Part shown: piece by piece, positions 39,210-63,967 of the stretch
Layout of the letters: each line of letters starts with the position of its first letter
Position numbering within the stretch: position 1 is the stretch's first letter
Sequence record: MN850633.1
Source of the DNA: Escherichia phage allfine
DNA length: 64,000 nt
Reading direction: 5' to 3' (one strand)
Notes under the pieces: generated by a model
Seen by the model: the letters and a program-made list of their open reading frames with translations, nothing else
Told to the model about the DNA's origin: nothing
Database searches by the model: none
Made by a program: the position numbers and the translations under genes

Positions 39210-39581
39210 ATGAAAGCTAAGAGTGCAAAAGACTTTTATTGCTTCCTACAATCCTATATCAATTCCGTGCAAAATGGTGAAAGGTACAACCTTAATGATG
39301 TTATCCCAACACCTTTGACATGGAGACTCAGTAAATGGCCTGAAGAAGATATTACACCAACAAGCGAACAGCGTACCTACAAACCTGAAATCAATATTCC
39401 AGATTCTGAGAATCTATTATATCCAATGTTCCATATCGTTGGTCTTGGAAGATTCCTTATGGATATCCAGTATGTAATTGGTAAAGGTTATAAGGTTAAA
39501 GTTATTGTTGTTGGTGATGTATCTCCGCATCACAAAGGTTATTTTAGACTAAACGCACATTTAGAGGCTAAAAAGAAATGA
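39210..39581 (+). CDS. hypothetical protein, paralog of N-terminal domain of next gene
   Basis: Alignable by eye to N-terminus of 39578-40462 (shared W-P-E-x-D-I and F-x-M-D-x-Q-Y segments). Confidence 0.45.
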   Translation: MKAKSAKDFYCFLQSYINSVQNGERYNLNDVIPTPLTWRLSKWPEEDITPTSEQRTYKPEINIPDSENLLYPMFHIVGLGRFLMDIQYVIGKGYKVKVIVVGDVSPHHKGYFRLNAHLEAKKK

Positions 39582-40462
39582 TTAAAGCAAAGACTTACCC
39601 AGACTTCAAAGAGTTTGTGAAGGGTTTCATTGCAAATGTAAAGGCTGGTAAGAGATATGATTTTAGAACATATCAAGAGGCTATTTTACCACTTACCTAT
39701 AGTTCATATTGGCCTGAAGCTGATATTGCAGAAGTTGAGAAGTTTGACTACAAACCAGACTACAAAGTTCCATTTAGTGATGAATTGCTTTACAGTGTTG
39801 GTGCACAGATGAGAACTGCTGATTTCTTCATGGATTTGCAGTATGCAATCATCAATGGTAAAGATGTTGACACAATTTACTGTGAATGGTTGGCAAGAGT
39901 TAAGCCGTTCTCAATGTTGAATGCTAAGTTGAAGGATGCTATTAAGCCACCATCAATTACTCAGCAACCAACAGGTCAAACAGTCAATGAGGGTGGCACA
40001 CTTACTCTAAGCATTCTAGCAACTAACGCCACTGGATATCAATGGAAAAAGGATGGTGAGGACATCCCTAGTGCCAATTCTGCAACTTACACAAAACAGT
40101 CAGTAGCACCTTCTGACGCTGGTTCATACACTTGTGTTGTATCTGGAGAGGGTGGAACAAGTGTTACCTCAGATGCAGCAACAGTTACTGTGAATGCACT
40201 TCCAGTAATCACTCAACAGCCAACCAATCAAGAAATCACTGAAGGTGATACCTTAACGCTGAATGTTGTGGCAACAGGTGCAACAAGTTACCAGTGGAAG
40301 AAAGGTGAGGAAGACATCCTCGATGCAACTACTGCAACTTACACCAAAGAAGGTGCAACCGCTGCTGATTCAGGAAGCTACACCTGTGTAGTTACTGGTG
40401 CAGGTGGCTCTGTAACATCTAACGCAGCAACAGTTACAGTTAATCCAGCAGGGGAGGCATAA
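39578..40462 (+). CDS. protein with two tandem Ig-like domains
   Basis: Two ~85 aa repeats each containing ITQQPT...GxTLTL...YQWKK...TATYTK...DSGSYTCVV...ATVTVN, an Ig-like strand pattern. Confidence 0.55.
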   Translation: MIKAKTYPDFKEFVKGFIANVKAGKRYDFRTYQEAILPLTYSSYWPEADIAEVEKFDYKPDYKVPFSDELLYSVGAQMRTADFFMDLQYAIINGKDVDTIYCEWLARVKPFSMLNAKLKDAIKPPSITQQPTGQTVNEGGTLTLSILATNATGYQWKKDGEDIPSANSATYTKQSVAPSDAGSYTCVVSGEGGTSVTSDAATVTVNALPVITQQPTNQEITEGDTLTLNVVATGATSYQWKKGEEDILDATTATYTKEGATAADSGSYTCVVTGAGGSVTSNAATVTVNPAGEA

Positions 40463-40926
40463 TGCAACTCTCAAGAAAAGGTTTAGAGGCTATTAAGTTC
40501 TTTGAAGGTCTGAAGTTAGAGGCTTACGAAGACTCTGCCGGAATCCCAACAATCGGTTATGGAACAATCCGTATTGGTGGGAAGCCTGTTAAGATGGGTA
40601 TGAAAATTACGGCTGAACAAGCTGAACAGTATCTTCTTGCAGATGTTGAAAAATTCGTTGCAGCAGTTAACAAAGCTATCAAGGTTCCAACTTCTCAGAA
40701 TGAGTTTGATGCACTTGTAAGTGAAACATACAACATTGGTATCACGGCTATGCAGGACTCCACATTTATCAAGCGCCACAATGCTGGTAATAAGGTTGGT
40801 TGTGCAGAAGCTATGCAGTGGTGGAACAAGGTCACAGTCAAAGGTAAGAAGGTCACTTCAAACGGCCTGAAAAACAGACGTAGAATGGAAGCTGACATTT
40901 ATCTTGACAGTGTATATCCAAAGTAA
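40462..40926 (+). CDS. endolysin, GH24 (T4-type) lysozyme
   Basis: N-terminal GLKLEAYEDSAGIPTIGYG catalytic region of phage lysozymes. Confidence 0.75.
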   Translation: MQLSRKGLEAIKFFEGLKLEAYEDSAGIPTIGYGTIRIGGKPVKMGMKITAEQAEQYLLADVEKFVAAVNKAIKVPTSQNEFDALVSETYNIGITAMQDSTFIKRHNAGNKVGCAEAMQWWNKVTVKGKKVTSNGLKNRRRMEADIYLDSVYPK

Positions 40927-52972: not shown

Positions 52973-53758
52973 TTAGTTCTTTGCGTCTAAGAAGGTTACT
53001 TCCGGTGAAGAGAAAACCGTCTCGATATCCTCATCATTTCTTGCATAGATGTAAGCATCTGCATCACTGCCAAATGTTACTGCAATTCTGTGATTGCTCT
53101 TCGACAGGTGGGTAACTAGAGCGTTACTTAGAGACATCTTCTCAACCGGAGGGTTACTTTGATGTATCTTACCTTTTCTTCGTCTGAAGAGGGTAACTGT
53201 ATCATCTGTGAACATTACTACACCTGCAAAGTATTCTGGTTCACAGTAGTTATTCCAACCTGAGCGTAACTTGTGGTACATCTCTCCTTCGTAGACATAC
53301 AGATAAACATCTACACTCTTCATCACCTGATTAATGATAACTGTGACGGCTTGAGGGTCTAGCCCACCGATACCTGCACCAATCATAGGTAGACCAACTT
53401 TCTTCAACTGATTGACTTCACAGTATCTGTTAAGCTGTTTCAAAGATGATTCTAAAGCACTGTATCGGGCATCTTTACCAGTCTTAAGCTGAGTGTAAAG
53501 GTTAGCTATTCGACCTTGTTTTAAACGTGCTACAGAGAAATTACCCAGTAAATTTTCACAGGGTTTGTGTCCTATACCACCTGCATATAGATAAACTTCT
53601 GTATCGGTCTCATATGCTTTTGGGTAAAGTTTAGAAATCTTGTCAGCGATACCTGCACCCATTAAATTCATACAGTTGCAACCGTGACCGATGATGTCAA
53701 ACTTACCTTTATCAAATGCGGCAAAGATATCACCATTGATTATTTTTACAATACCCAT
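52973..53758 (-). CDS. macro-domain protein of TARG1/OARD1/DarG type (ADP-ribose hydrolase fold) with about 110 aa C-terminal extension
   Basis: INGDIFAAF ... HGCNCMNLMGAGIA ... LPMIGAGIGGLD parallels TARG1 KGDLFA ... HCISEDCRMGAGIA ... MPRIGCGLD (TARG1 recalled from memory). Confidence 0.6.
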   Translation of the reverse strand: MGIVKIINGDIFAAFDKGKFDIIGHGCNCMNLMGAGIADKISKLYPKAYETDTEVYLYAGGIGHKPCENLLGNFSVARLKQGRIANLYTQLKTGKDARYSALESSLKQLNRYCEVNQLKKVGLPMIGAGIGGLDPQAVTVIINQVMKSVDVYLYVYEGEMYHKLRSGWNNYCEPEYFAGVVMFTDDTVTLFRRRKGKIHQSNPPVEKMSLSNALVTHLSKSNHRIAVTFGSDADAYIYARNDEDIETVFSSPEVTFLDAKN

Positions 53759-55786: not shown

Positions 55787-56482
55787 TCAATGTTTAACTA
55801 ACATGGTTTTGATGTGTGGAAGGATTCTATTCACCTTCTGCACATTCTTCTCTGTATCTTCTATAAAACATACTATATTAAAGTAAGGCAGAATGCAAGA
55901 CTGAATCATCCTCACTTTCAAACTTTCTGCACTTATAGAGTTAGTCCCAAAACCACGCATAAAAAGCATGTAGTCATGCTCTGTGTTATGCCTTAAAAAC
56001 ATCTCAGTAGGTATTCTCTGAGATTCGCCTCTCGCTGTCAAGAGTCCAACGGCAGCATGATTAGCAATTGCATCAATGATATTGAAAACATACGTTGGTT
56101 TTGCTCTTACAGAGTCAAGAAGATTAGTGTACTGTGAAAATGAACCATCAGTCAGTTCCGTTGAACAATCTTCGTGATTAAAATTTGTAAGAACACCATC
56201 AATATCTGCTAAGATGAGATTCCCTTTTTCTATAAGGTCTTTATTGACTATGACTAAACTATCACGTTTTACACCTATGGATTGTCCAGTCTTTTTGTCC
56301 ACAACGTTCACAATTGGTTCTGACGTGTGGAACTCTTCAAGTGAACATACAACTTCTCTTGCGGTGTCTTCAAAGTCTCTACACTGTTCTGGAGTCCATA
56401 CACAGGAATCAAGACCTAACTCATGAGGATGTAAGTCATAAGCATGACACAGTACTTCATCAGACTTTTTTAATTTTTTCAT
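55787..56482 (-). CDS. HAD-superfamily phosphatase/nucleotidase-like protein with N-terminal extra domain
   Basis: HAD motif I DxDG present as LADIDGVLT. Confidence 0.5.
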   Translation of the reverse strand: MKKLKKSDEVLCHAYDLHPHELGLDSCVWTPEQCRDFEDTAREVVCSLEEFHTSEPIVNVVDKKTGQSIGVKRDSLVIVNKDLIEKGNLILADIDGVLTNFNHEDCSTELTDGSFSQYTNLLDSVRAKPTYVFNIIDAIANHAAVGLLTARGESQRIPTEMFLRHNTEHDYMLFMRGFGTNSISAESLKVRMIQSCILPYFNIVCFIEDTEKNVQKVNRILPHIKTMLVKH

Positions 56483-61186: not shown

Positions 61187-61207
61187 AGTTTTCTCCAGAA
61201 ATTAAAA

Positions 61208-61225
61208 AGGCTCCCGTAGGAGCCT
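61208..61225 (-). terminator. intrinsic terminator
   Basis: AGGCTCC-CGT-AGGAGCCT; minus strand followed by TTTTTAAT. Confidence 0.5.
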
Positions 61226-61239
61226 CTTATCATATACTT

Positions 61240-63021
61240 TTAAAGCTGCTTGTCAATATTATTTCGAATATCACCAAGAGTTGTGTAACCGAACTGTTCA
61301 GAGTCACTAAAAATTAAGCGTAGAGCACAAGCTGGGTGGTCAAGTGCATCTGCAAAGCTCTGGAATCCATAGCCATCTACAGCTTTCAGCTTCTCACCAT
61401 CCCACATAGGTGCTACACCACCAAAGGCAGATTTCTTAACACCACTATCTGTTTTAGGGTCTTTTGCAAGCATAATCTCTTTACCACCAATGCTTGCAAG
61501 AGTTGCTTTGACAGCAAATGCAAAGGTGTCACGAGTCATGTACTGGTAAGTGTAAGAACCTACGCCAAACACTACGTTAGAGCTTGCAAAACCCATTTCA
61601 TACAGACGCTTCAGGATTTCGTTTGCACGTTCCAGCGTGATAGAGTCACCATAGATAAGTCCGATATGCTCATCCAGTACCTTAAACCCTTTAGAGTTAA
61701 TAGTTCCCCCAAAGATGTTGTACAGTGTCTTAATAGCTCCATCAATCTCAGCTACAGGACGTGTTACAACGTTTGCAGAACCAACCATATAAGCATTTTT
61801 CAACAGCACTGTATCAGCAACTTCAAAGTCTTCTCTGTCAACAACCATTTCGTAGCCTTCTGACAGTAGCCATCCAGCAATACCATAATTGATGTTTTCA
61901 AGCTTCATGTTCAGGACAGAGTTCAGCATTGTGTCACTTGCCTCTAGCTTGCTTAGGTGCTCGTAATAAGCCTTCTTAGCACACTCTAAGTGGATTGCTT
62001 TATAGCCTGTGACAATATGTACAGGGTCTCCAGAGTCAGGACGAATTACCAGTTTGCCATCACGTTCCATAATTTCTTTACGGAGTGCTGGTAAGATTTC
62101 TGACACAGTTCTCCAGAAGTTATAAGTATCTGAAACAATACTTACAATACCAGTTGGGTAAGTTTCTGTTAAGAAACGACGGAAGGTTTGTAACTCACCT
62201 TTAAAGCGTCTTTCTTCTTCAATCAGTTCATTACCACCTTCCCAAGCAATGTTTGCACACATTACAGAGTGTTCAGTGGCTGGTACAGAACTACCAATAT
62301 CAGAAATTGGGTAAGACTGTCCATAGATGCGTTTAGCCGTGTATACAGCAGGGAAACTATCAGTTCCTTTAAAGCTGGTTAAGTGACCTACAGCATTAAA
62401 TGCGTCATCGGTAAAGCCGGACATACCACGCATAGCAAAGTCATGGCACTGATAAGGTAAATGTAAGTCGTTATCGCAAGTAAGGTCAGCCCACTTCTTA
62501 CAGATACGTTTGTAGTGCAATGCGATAGTTGCAATGGTGCAAGCCTTCCAAATCTCAGCAGAGAAAGCATCTTCCAGATAACCTGCTACCCAATGGAAAC
62601 CTGAAACAGTGTTCTGGAAGACAATCATTGGGACACGCATCGGGACAACTGTGCCTTCTTCTACAGCGTATACTTCAACTGGCAGATAACCTAAGTCGTG
62701 AAGTGCTTCCCAATGCTCTCGACCGATAGCATCTTTACCCAGAACACCATTCATGACTTCTAAGATTTCGTCAATTGCTTCTTTTTTATCACGTTCAAAG
62801 AAAGTGGCGTTCCAGTGGTCTATCAAGTAATCTTTAACAAAACGTTGAATACCAAAAGCCACTACACCATCAATTGCTAAAGGGCTGTTAAACCATTTGT
62901 CGCTACGTGGTGTCAGGTTGAACATCAAGTACTCTGTTGCACTAGGATACTGGTAAACATGACCAGATTTGTAAGCATCTGCGTTTAAACCTGCTGGTAC
63001 TGCATAAAGCGATTTAGTCAT
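61240..63021 (-). CDS. nadV: nicotinamide/nicotinate phosphoribosyltransferase family protein (NAMPT/NadV-like)
   Basis: Type-II PRTase signature HDFxxRG present as HDFAMRGMSG; 593 aa; adjacent to PRPP synthetase. Confidence 0.75.
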   Translation of the reverse strand: MTKSLYAVPAGLNADAYKSGHVYQYPSATEYLMFNLTPRSDKWFNSPLAIDGVVAFGIQRFVKDYLIDHWNATFFERDKKEAIDEILEVMNGVLGKDAIGREHWEALHDLGYLPVEVYAVEEGTVVPMRVPMIVFQNTVSGFHWVAGYLEDAFSAEIWKACTIATIALHYKRICKKWADLTCDNDLHLPYQCHDFAMRGMSGFTDDAFNAVGHLTSFKGTDSFPAVYTAKRIYGQSYPISDIGSSVPATEHSVMCANIAWEGGNELIEEERRFKGELQTFRRFLTETYPTGIVSIVSDTYNFWRTVSEILPALRKEIMERDGKLVIRPDSGDPVHIVTGYKAIHLECAKKAYYEHLSKLEASDTMLNSVLNMKLENINYGIAGWLLSEGYEMVVDREDFEVADTVLLKNAYMVGSANVVTRPVAEIDGAIKTLYNIFGGTINSKGFKVLDEHIGLIYGDSITLERANEILKRLYEMGFASSNVVFGVGSYTYQYMTRDTFAFAVKATLASIGGKEIMLAKDPKTDSGVKKSAFGGVAPMWDGEKLKAVDGYGFQSFADALDHPACALRLIFSDSEQFGYTTLGDIRNNIDKQL

Positions 63022-63041
63022 CTTTTAATCTCTCTCAAAAT

Positions 63042-63058
63042 GGGGCTTAAAAGCCCCC
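63042..63058 (-). terminator. hairpin, weak terminator candidate
   Basis: GGGGCTT-AA-AAGCCCC between prs and NAMPT genes; T-run weak. Confidence 0.3.
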
Positions 63059-63067
63059 TATAAAGTT

Positions 63068-63967
63068 TTAATCAAGGTTTGCTACAGTAACTTGACCATA
63101 ATGTGTTAAGCCACGGTCTTTAGCTTCCCCTAAAGAGTTTGTAGTGTAAATGTGGTCAATACCATTGTCAAGAAGGTTTTCAACACCTTTAGAGAAGATA
63201 CCATGTGTTACATAGAGTTCCACACGTTTTGCACCTGCTTCACGAAGATGTTTAGCTGCTTCTATGAATGTTCGACCACCATCACAGATATCGTCGAGAA
63301 TCATAACAGTTTTATCGGTCAAATCAACATCATCAAGGATTCGCATACCAGTAATTTCACCAGTCTTAAGGTTACGTACTTTAGACATTGTGATGTATGG
63401 TTTATCCACCTCTTTAGCAGTCTCTGCAATCTTCTTAGAAGCACCTGCATCTGGGGCTACTAAGTAATCAACCAGAGGGTCATTCGCATAGTGAACTGCG
63501 ACTTCCTTTTGAGGAATGCTTTGGAAGCAGTTAAATAGGTTGTCTGGTACATAACTGTGAGGGTCAACTGCACAGACTGCACCAAACCCCATTGCATTAA
63601 CCTGTTTAGCAAAAACCTTCAAAGCTGCTGCATCACCTTTAAACATGTGACGGTCATATCGTGCATTTGGTAAGTAGTAAAAAATGACAGTCTTTAAGGC
63701 ATATTCATGAGGAACTAAATCATCAATTGCTTCTTTAGCAAGTGCCACAGCAAACAATGTGTCTTTATCATAACCTTTTACAATCATAATCACATTGTTG
63801 ATGGATGATGCTGCGTGAGCAGTAAAGTCAACAAGCTCTTGTGAAAAGTGTCCACCAATCTCACCAGAAGGGAACTGGATGAGGTTAAACTCTTCTTCAT
63901 GAGACCCTTTTGTCGGTGAATGAATTATAACACGGATAGATGTTTTCATAGTTTTACTCTCAATCAA
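63068..63967 (-). CDS. prs: ribose-phosphate pyrophosphokinase (PRPP synthetase)
   Basis: PRPP-binding loop VMILDDICDGGRTF; about 299 aa; true start may be internal Met. Confidence 0.75.
   Translation of the reverse strand: MIESKTMKTSIRVIIHSPTKGSHEEEFNLIQFPSGEIGGHFSQELVDFTAHAASSINNVIMIVKGYDKDTLFAVALAKEAIDDLVPHEYALKTVIFYYLPNARYDRHMFKGDAAALKVFAKQVNAMGFGAVCAVDPHSYVPDNLFNCFQSIPQKEVAVHYANDPLVDYLVAPDAGASKKIAETAKEVDKPYITMSKVRNLKTGEITGMRILDDVDLTDKTVMILDDICDGGRTFIEAAKHLREAGAKRVELYVTHGIFSKGVENLLDNGIDHIYTTNSLGEAKDRGLTHYGQVTVANLD

Follow-up and report, generated by a model that had tools for sequence, protein, structure and literature searches.

What do the adjacent NAMPT-like and Prs-like genes of Escherichia phage allfine make? 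The pair lies in the 64,000-nucleotide stretch of record MN850633.1 that we analysed (the window), which is Felixounavirus sequence and matches phages Barry, EC106 and HY02 at 95% of nucleotides. A preliminary description of the sequence proposed that the two enzymes convert ribose-5-phosphate to PRPP and then to NMN, rebuilding NAD after NAD-depleting host immunity, with the last step left to an NMNAT from another part of the phage genome or from the host. We propose, with high confidence, that the pair is instead the Felixounavirus NARP1 operon (NAD+ reconstitution pathway 1), encoding Adps and Namat. NARP1 was discovered in the genes 79-80 operon of Bas63 (Escherichia phage JohannRWettstein, MZ501086) (Osterman et al., 2024; bioRxiv 10.1101/2024.02.11.579819). 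The Felixounavirus pair is this already published system, present as near-identical copies of the known pair, and is not new.

Gene content and layout of the operon

The features of the locus, in window coordinates, are:

63068..63949, minus strand: adps, Prs-like, predicted ADP-ribose pyrophosphate synthetase, 293 aa from ATG (Bas63 gp79 identity, TIGR01251, catalytic residues)
61240..63021, minus strand: namat, NAMPT-like, predicted nicotinamide ADP-ribose transferase, 593 aa (Bas63 gp80 identity, clamp motif, catalytic core)
63042..63057, minus strand: intergenic hairpin GGGGCU-UUUA-AGCCCC, then AUUUU, in the gap that separates adps from namat (RNA fold, conservation)
61205..61228, minus strand: intrinsic-terminator-like hairpin closing the operon (stem and T-run, Barry annotation)
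61738..61974, minus strand: segment coding for a Namat insertion, approximately residues 351-427 (alignment, tblastn)
52973..53758, minus strand: Macro-domain protein, 261 aa, unlinked and outside the operon; possible Adpp-like accessory, unproven (Pfam Macro, 32 bits)

An ORF check placed the 593-aa ORF at 61240-63021, exactly where the preliminary description had it, and a 299-aa ORF, opening at a TTG, at 63068-63967, both on the minus strand. The 299-aa Prs-like ORF is thus present as described, but its true start is most likely the ATG at 63949 (293 aa) rather than the TTG at 63967, because a GAGAG Shine-Dalgarno sequence lies upstream of this ATG, the alignment to Bas63 gp79 starts there, and an 882-nt adps gene is annotated in both Bas63 and Barry. 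The two genes are indeed adjacent and co-oriented, with a gap of 46 nt. Plus-strand ORFs that overlap them (61336-61863 and 63152-63463) are taken to be antisense shadows of these two strongly supported genes.

The hairpin in the gap has a local fold of -14.1 kcal/mol (z = -2.2), and its stem is unchanged across the window, Bas63 and Barry, with variation confined to loop bases; we infer that it may be a weak terminator or an RNA-stability element. The terminator-like hairpin, 12 nt past the namat stop, has a stem of 10 pairs, including five G-C pairs, with a T-run after it; Barry carries an annotated terminator at the equivalent position. A sigma-70 promoter scan around the operon returned 15 matches against 7.8 expected, none of them convincing, and we assign no promoter because the 5' end of the operon is beyond the window edge.

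Family membership, and what it cannot distinguish

The family assignments of the preliminary description hold, with scores far beyond chance. The 593-aa protein matches Pfam NAPRTase at 121 bits (cutoff 20.8) and also NAMPT_N, the NAMPT equivalog model NF006629 of NCBIfam at 470 bits (cutoff 405), and PHROG 448 (E 3e-202). The Prs-like protein matches Pfam Pribosyltran and Pribosyl_synth, the broad subfamily model TIGR01251 at 118.8 bits (cutoff 113), and PHROG 619 (E 9e-97); it falls under every Prs equivalog cutoff (score/cutoff of 103/296 for PRK00934, 90/297 for PRK01259 and 63/438 for PRK03092). The preliminary description had staked its reading on HMM placement of the larger protein in the NAMPT family and on an intact PRPP loop in the smaller one. 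Both are found, but tests of this kind cannot expose NARP1 chemistry, because Namat and Adps pass at the family level. Nearly all of the 259 related GenBank records label the proteins "nicotinamide/nicotinate phosphoribosyltransferase" and "ribose-phosphate pyrophosphokinase", and the Pfam, NCBIfam, PHROG and GenBank labels alone would suggest an incomplete NMN pathway.

The pair is orthologous to the Bas63 NARP1 operon

Both phages belong to Felixounavirus, and the window shares with Bas63 the orientation of the two genes, the gene order (adps, namat, small ORFs, rIIA, rIIB), the intergenic hairpin and the downstream terminator. They differ in that a small ORF that follows namat in Bas63, bas63_0081, is absent from the window, and in the N-terminal allele of adps. 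Namat is identical to Bas63 gp80 at 583 of 593 residues (98%), with nucleotide identity of 94-98% across the gene, and has the same catalytic and clamp residues. Adps aligns to Bas63 gp79 without gaps, with 229 of 293 residues identical (78%).

The identity between the two Adps proteins is unevenly distributed: their C-terminal halves are near-identical, the first ~90 residues are 53-67% identical, and the first ~270 nt of the gene have 56-64% nucleotide identity. Relative to Bas63, the window has a divergent allele of the N-terminal third of Adps.

Among solved structures, the best relative of the window Namat is SpbetaL1 Namat (PDB 9W5W/9W5X; 433 bits), followed by PDB 9KE8 (354 bits), Xanthomonas Nampt (181 bits) and human NAMPT (145 bits); 9KE8, a Nampt-labelled homolog without the clamp aromatic residues, serves as an unlabelled comparator only. 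The Nampt-like catalytic core is intact, comprising D15, Y17, F195, R198, D221, H251, R327, D329 and G458-D459, with SpbetaL1 counterparts, in order, of D13, Y15, F189, R192, D215, the catalytic His, R306, D308 and G360-D361. The SCH clamp motif, GSYTYQYMTRD at residues 488-498, contributes the aromatic residues Y490 and Y494, and its counterparts are GSFTYQYNTRD in SpbetaL1 and GSYTYQYVTRD in Vibrio phage ICP1; in Xanthomonas Nampt and 9KE8 the same stretch reads GGALLQKVDRD and GAQTYQRNTRD, respectively. At clamp position phi3 the window has Met, as does Bas63, in place of the usual Asn or Val. The published rule for the SCL loop is that an adenine-stacking R, K or Y occupies the third position and that, if this residue is K or Y, the next one stacks, with Bas63 given as the example. 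The window loop, TPRSDKWFNSPLAID, is identical to that of Bas63 and has K42 followed by W43; its alignment to the SpbetaL1 loop is approximate.

Two insertions, of ~15 aa (residues 258-272) and ~77 aa (residues 351-427), set the window Namat apart from the SpbetaL1 and ICP1 proteins, which lack both; the 77-aa insertion is shared with Bas63. With tblastn, matches to the 77-aa insertion are confined to the Namat genes of 253 Felixounavirus/Mooglevirus-type records, and on this evidence the insertion is specific to Ounavirinae. Neither residues 351-427 of Namat nor the C-terminal extension of the macro protein (see below) has a meaningful Pfam or PDB sequence match (best E 0.12-0.87), and the single-sequence AlphaFold2 models of both proteins are unusable (mean pLDDT ~33).

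For the window Adps, the match to ICP1 Adps has a score of 119 bits, and no solved Prs exceeds 67 bits. The catalytic lysine (Lys190) and six acceptor-site residues (R97, H131, D167, D219, D220 and D223) are kept, in columns that are invariant in a three-way alignment; their ICP1 equivalents are the catalytic K185 and, in the acceptor groove, R87, H121, D161, D212, D213 and D216 (PMC13586617). ICP1 Adps has a remodelled PP loop (C215-S220) and four aromatic residues that contact adenine (F18, F92, F221 and F223), and is described in the ICP1 structure paper as being without the regulatory elements of Prs. The window PP loop keeps the DDICDG with which the ICP1 loop begins and then reads GRT where ICP1 reads AAS. 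Of the aromatic contacts, F228 is conserved, E230 lies opposite ICP1 F223, and Met102 lies opposite ICP1 Phe92, with Phe103 adjacent; for ICP1 Phe18 the N-terminal alignment is unreliable, such that F26, in FPSGE, is a motif-based guess at the counterpart. Unlike the Bas63 proteins, those of ICP1 are distant from the window pair, at just 47% identity for Namat (NrsB) and 32% for Adps (NrsA).

Orthology and synteny are therefore established and the published catalytic and specificity residues conserved, while the adenine-contact aromatics and the tail of the PP loop of Adps differ in part. By analogy, the window enzymes probably act like their characterised orthologs.

A probable route to NAD+ that bypasses NMN

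If they do, the pathway would run as follows. NAD-depleting defences (SIR2-HerA, type I Thoeris, DSR1/2, SEFIR) split NAD+ into ADP-ribose and nicotinamide; Adps would move the beta,gamma-diphosphate of ATP to the 1'' hydroxyl of ADP-ribose, giving ADPR-pyrophosphate (ADPR-PP); and Namat would exchange the pyrophosphate of ADPR-PP for nicotinamide, giving NAD+ in one step. NAD+ would thus be rebuilt without an NMN intermediate, an NMNAT or a host salvage enzyme. NARP1 shares with cellular Prs and NAMPT both the folds and the chemistry, in which a diphosphoryl group is transferred and pyrophosphate displaced, but it uses ADP-ribose as acceptor in place of ribose-5-phosphate and yields NAD+ in place of NMN.

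Published work on the orthologs supports both the chemistry and the protective role in this scheme. Deleting genes 79-80 renders Bas63 sensitive to SIR2-HerA, with a drop in NAD+, and Bas63-infected cells contain ADPR-PP in an operon-dependent manner (Osterman et al., 2024). The protective role that the preliminary description gave the pair is thus borne out through its ortholog. In an independent screen each of the two genes was singly required, with plating efficiency reduced 1e4- to 1e6-fold; the operon is dispensable in hosts without a defence system and required in hosts with one. The Bas63 protein purified poorly, and the enzymes characterised in vitro are the SpbetaL1 and ICP1 homologs: the purified SpbetaL1 enzymes convert ADPR and ATP to ADPR-PP, and ADPR-PP and nicotinamide to NAD+ (Osterman et al., 2024).

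The principal alternative is the classical salvage route of the preliminary description, in which Prs would make PRPP and NAMPT would make NMN, with NAD+ completed by an NMNAT elsewhere in the phage or by host NadR or PncC/NadD. The database labels agree with it, and without ADPR-PP the SpbetaL1 Namat is able to turn PRPP into NMN. Indeed, Osterman et al. (2024) first assumed a PRPP/NMN route for the Bas63 operon, but then refuted it: Bas63 overcomes SIR2-HerA even in a host lacking both pncC and nadR, SpbetaL1 Namat favours ADPR-PP over PRPP, and SpbetaL1 Adps gave no product from the canonical Prs substrate. For the Bas63 ortholog the model is largely refuted, and the window proteins, at 98% and 78% identity to those of Bas63, carry the same signature residues, among them the clamp that selects for ADPR-PP. 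Gene associations point the same way, since 94% of true phage Nampt genes are found together with an Nmnat and none of them with Adps. We consider the salvage route very unlikely for the window pair, although a minor NMN route may coexist with NARP1 because Namat homologs make NMN from PRPP in vitro.

The preliminary description saw no NMNAT in the window, and we concur: a Pfam scan of 62 window ORFs returned no NMNAT/cytidylyltransferase, Nudix, PnuC or NadR, and no NMNAT emerged from the final ~23 kb of the genome either, which was covered only by the annotations of Bas63 and Barry and by selected ORFs. The absence needs no explanation by a second phage gene or a host enzyme, because the NARP1 pathway uses no NMNAT. 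We also considered as the missing NMNAT a "putative NAD synthase" annotated in Barry and Alf5 (bas63_0057 in Bas63, outside the window); this protein matches SegE GIY-YIG (PF19835, 97 bits), and the label is, on the strength of this match, evidently a legacy misannotation.

Other phage pathways for NAD+ reconstitution fit less well. NARP2 of Vibrio phage KVP40 (NadV-NatV, a Nampt and a bifunctional Nmnat) likewise uses a NAMPT-fold enzyme and nicotinamide to counter NAD-depleting defence, but it runs through PRPP and NMN, needs the Nmnat and has no Adps, whereas the window encodes Adps and a Namat with the clamp but lacks Nmnat; NARP1 and NARP2 are reported to be mutually exclusive. NARP3, defined by PnuC-like transporter and NadR-like enzyme genes (PMC13464706), was rejected, as neither family is present among the 62 ORFs scanned.

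It is less likely still that the pair is a nucleotide-supply module, in which the Prs-like enzyme would provide additional PRPP for making phage nucleotides, with only an incidental link to immunity: in relatives the pair is directly downstream of the ribonucleotide reductase (nrd) cluster, and the window also encodes thymidylate synthase and DHFR, but the operon is needed only when a defence system is present, Adps scores far under the Prs equivalog cutoffs, and such a module does not account for the 97% of Adps-clade genes that adjoin a Namat.

A distant macro-domain gene and a possible split NARP1-AP system

The preliminary description placed the NARP1 pair next to a macro-domain block. A macro gene does exist, but it is a single gene, the window's sole Pfam Macro match, and it lies ~7.5 kb and 14 ORFs downstream of the pair, beyond rIIA and rIIB; the operon neighbours (Bas63 gp77, gp78 and gp81, and the 111-aa and 58-aa ORFs of the window) have no Macro match. 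In the NARP1-AP system of Vibrio phage Gary (Adps-Adpp-Namat; Osterman et al., 2026 preprint) a macro protein is part of the operon. The window likewise encodes Adps, Namat and a macro protein, although its macro gene is outside the operon and the protein has an extra C-terminal region of ~105 aa.

The window macro protein shares 30% identity (E 1e-21) with a Pakpunavirus protein of the same kind, encoded two genes past Namat, and 28% identity (E 5e-14) with gp167 of Thalassavirus Brizo, which is encoded between Adps and Namat in a phage of the same genus as Gary. Over the whole macro domain it is homologous to these operon-embedded proteins, and its relationship to Adpp through them is at the family level only. 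A profile of the three macro proteins matches both TARG1/OARD1 (E 3e-15) and yeast Poa1p (E 5e-9) over their full length, and the family is equally near to both. Members occur in ~2,800 phage records, some of them from T-even phages that have no NARP1.

A tentative extension of the NARP1 reading is that Felixounaviruses have a split NARP1-AP system, in which the unlinked 261-aa macro protein would be an Adpp-type ADPR-1''-phosphate phosphatase that feeds ADP-ribose to Adps and Namat, allowing the phage to escape NAD+ phosphorolysis by aRES (RES-domain) defences. We think this possible, though on balance doubtful. A split system would have escaped the published NARP1-AP survey, because that survey counted a macro gene only if it lay no more than two genes from NARP1. 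As a weaker companion idea, the 77-aa Namat insertion and the divergent N-terminal allele of Adps may be adaptations to host counter-measures.

Implications

The case is mainly a lesson in annotation. Identifying the pair as NARP1 predicts that the phage resists NAD+ depletion by SIR2-, TIR- and SEFIR-based defences without help from host salvage enzymes, and this predicted resistance bears on the choice of therapeutic Felixounaviruses. The sole forward-looking element is the distant macro gene, which may widen the range of protection: if the split NARP1-AP idea is true, the protection that NARP1 gives to these phages of E. coli and Salmonella would extend to aRES.

The published NARP1 pair

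The two adjacent minus-strand genes are NAD+ reconstitution pathway 1 (NARP1), already published and found here within the genus of its discovery. The phage is a Felixounavirus (Ounavirinae), as is the BASEL phage Bas63 (JohannRWettstein), from whose Prs-like/NAMPT-like operon, genes 79-80, NARP1 was described (bioRxiv 10.1101/2024.02.11.579819). The features discussed are as follows; L004 and L005 are the records of phages Bas63 and Barry.

61240-63021, minus strand: namat, NAMPT-like ORF, 593 aa
61738-61974, minus strand: ~77-aa Namat insertion, residues ~351-427 (alignment with SpbetaL1 and ICP1 Namat)
Namat residues 258-272, minus strand: ~15-aa insertion (same alignment)
63068-63967, minus strand: adps as an ORF of 299 aa; 293 aa from the likelier ATG at 63949
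63680-63949, minus strand: first ~270 nt of adps, ending in a sharp mosaic boundary (nucleotide identity to Bas63)
63042-63057, minus strand: intergenic hairpin GGGGCU/AGCCCC, between the adps stop and the namat start
61205-61228, minus strand: strong terminator-like hairpin downstream of namat
52973-53758, minus strand: Macro-domain protein, 261 aa, Macro domain at residues 25-141
L004 344-841 (Bas63 gp57) and L005 14901-15303 (Barry_0104): SegE-type GIY-YIG protein (Pfam)

Both ORFs have the coordinates and lengths reported in the preliminary description, and its family calls (NAMPT/NAPRTase and Prs) are borne out by database matches: the 593-aa protein to Pfam NAPRTase (121 bits) and NAMPT_N, NCBIfam NF006629 (470 bits; cutoff 405) and PHROG 448 (E 3e-202), and the 299-aa protein to Pfam Pribosyltran and Pribosyl_synth, TIGR01251 (118.8 bits; cutoff 113) and PHROG 619. 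We consider the ATG at 63949 the likelier adps start because GAGAG lies just upstream and the 293-aa Bas63 protein aligns from this codon onward. Bas63 (MZ501086) gp80 is identical to the window Namat at 583 of 593 positions and gp79 to the window Adps at 229 of 293; both alignments are gapless, and the syntenic slot is shared. The window proteins are thus NARP1 orthologs, with determinants conserved as detailed below.

Once a defence system has split NAD+ into ADPR and nicotinamide, Adps would convert ADPR and ATP to ADPR-PP, and Namat would combine ADPR-PP with nicotinamide to restore NAD+. Published work on orthologs and homologs has demonstrated all three steps, and the allfine enzymes presumably carry out the same reactions. 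The pair had instead been read as a Prs supplying PRPP for NMN synthesis, chemistry that is contradicted by experiments on the Bas63 ortholog. Indeed, Osterman et al. initially assumed this route, and later abandoned it because Bas63 still defeated SIR2-HerA in a host lacking pncC and nadR; ADPR-pyrophosphate, moreover, was detected only when wild-type phage infected cells carrying the defence (bioRxiv 10.1101/2024.02.11.579819). Purified SpbetaL1 Adps made ADPR-PP from ADPR and ATP, with no product from the canonical substrate, and purified SpbetaL1 Namat made NAD+ from ADPR-PP and nicotinamide, preferring ADPR-PP over PRPP (bioRxiv 10.1101/2024.02.11.579819). An independent gene-essentiality screen found g79 and g80 each to be required against Sir2-HerA.

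The observation that no NMNAT is visible in the window stands: a Pfam scan of 62 ORFs in the window gave no match to an NMNAT, Nudix, PnuC or NadR family. Since NARP1 works without NMNAT, the puzzle of the missing enzyme disappears. The gene content of these ORFs and the clamp motif rule out NARP2 (Nampt + Nmnat) and NARP3 (PnuC + NadR). The "putative NAD synthase" of relatives, which lies outside the window, is really the SegE-type GIY-YIG protein (PF19835, 97 bits); the NAD synthase/synthetase label, found in several Felixounavirus records and PHROG 447, is a propagated misannotation.

Conservation of Namat and Adps

The Namat structure (PDB 9W5W/9W5X) combines a Nampt-like catalytic core with an adenine "selectivity clamp", and the structure paper names a Bas63-type loop arrangement (PMC12774641). 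The window Namat has this arrangement, with K42-W43 in its loop, and GSYTYQYMTRD at residues 488-498, a stretch that reads GAQTYQRNTRD in PDB 9KE8 and GGALLQKVDRD in Xanthomonas Nampt. All core residues are present (D15, Y17, F195, R198, D221, H251, R327, D329), and no clamp or core residue is among the ten positions at which the protein differs from Bas63. SpbetaL1 and ICP1 Namat lack both the ~77-aa and the ~15-aa insertions. The longer insertion is confined to Namat genes, in 253 Ounavirinae records, with 41-50% identity between genera; Pfam and PDB sequence searches gave no match to it, and we found no discussion of it in the NARP1 papers cited.

Structures of ICP1 Adps define a catalytic Lys185, acceptor residues R87, H121, D161, D212, D213 and D216, and a remodelled PP loop (PMC13586617). 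We retrieved ICP1 ORF228/229 for alignment with the window proteins; K190, R97, H131, D167, D219, D220, D223 and DDICDG of the window Adps are invariant. The PP-loop tail differs (GRT in the window, AAS in ICP1), ICP1 F92 and F223 correspond to Met102 (with Phe103 adjacent) and Glu230, and the counterpart of Phe18 could not be placed, the N-terminal alignment being too weak. The window Adps scores 119 bits against ICP1 Adps (tblastn) and at most 67 bits against solved Prs, and falls below the cutoff of every Prs equivalog model.

Compared with Bas63, adps has 56-64% nucleotide identity in its first 270 nt and 79-92% thereafter, whereas namat is 94-98% identical throughout. This pattern suggests that the Adps N-terminal domain was replaced by recombination. 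Felixounaviruses have two Adps allele groups, with at least 90% or 76-79% identity to the window.

A distant macro-domain gene

The pair had been described as adjacent to a "macro-domain block". A Macro gene exists, but it is a single gene, 7.5 kb and 14 ORFs away, past rIIA and rIIB; its product has an orphan C-terminal extension of ~105 aa. The aRES defence yields ADPR-1''-phosphate, which NARP1 cannot use; in a survey covering only genes at most two positions from NARP1, 15% of NARP1 operons had an embedded macro-domain phosphatase, named Adpp and verified for Vibrio phage Gary (10.64898/2026.01.28.702374). Two operon-linked proteins share homology with the window protein along the entire macro domain: one is encoded two genes after Namat in a Pakpunavirus (30% identity, E 1e-21), and the other, Thalassavirus Brizo gp167, by a gene flanked by Adps and Namat in a phage of Gary's genus (28%, E 5e-14). 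A profile built from all three retrieves TARG1/OARD1 (E 3e-15) as well as yeast Poa1p (E 5e-9), both at full length. The catalytic residues of TARG1 are K84 and D125; at what we take to be these sites, the window protein apparently has Gln90 and Gly. Two points speak against a dedicated role: the macro gene sits outside the NARP1 operon, and its family is spread over ~2,800 phage records, some of them from T-even phages that have no NARP1. That this gene and adps-namat constitute a "split NARP1-AP" is possible but rather unlikely.

Genomic setting

The transcription unit of adps-namat extends upstream past the window edge. The intergenic hairpin has the same stem in the window, Bas63 and Barry, with variation confined to the loop, and may be a weak attenuator or RNA-stability element tuning the Adps:Namat ratio. 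Downstream of the terminator-like hairpin, on the same strand, are two small ORFs, rIIA, rIIB and more early genes. Bas63 and several relatives have an extra 114-aa ORF, bas63_0081 (PHROG 20372), directly after the namat terminator; its absence here (window 61187-61239 versus L004 15509-15853) is a ~350 bp presence/absence polymorphism. According to the PhageMaP preprint, Bas63 gp77 acts against the Ec67 retron; its gene is the second one upstream of adps, and NARP1 therefore ends a small anti-defence gene cluster that is cut by the window; gp77 is at L004 11949-12464, and its equivalent falls just past the right edge.

Elsewhere, a 231-aa protein (55787-56482, minus strand) labelled "polynucleotide kinase" (PHROG 3970) has no Pfam match; it has a HAD-type DxDGV motif (LILADIDGVL), so a phosphatase-domain protein is more likely. 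A 294-aa protein (39578-40462, plus strand) has strong immunoglobulin-domain matches (Ig_3, 84 bits; Ig_2; I-set), and a phage lysozyme gene (40462-40926) lies directly downstream.

The 2.7-kb region of the pair is ~95% identical to that of Escherichia phages Barry, EC106 and HY02, and matches 259 phage records, almost all of which label the genes "nicotinamide phosphoribosyltransferase" and "ribose-phosphate pyrophosphokinase". The misreading of adps-namat chemistry is the one that database labels invite.
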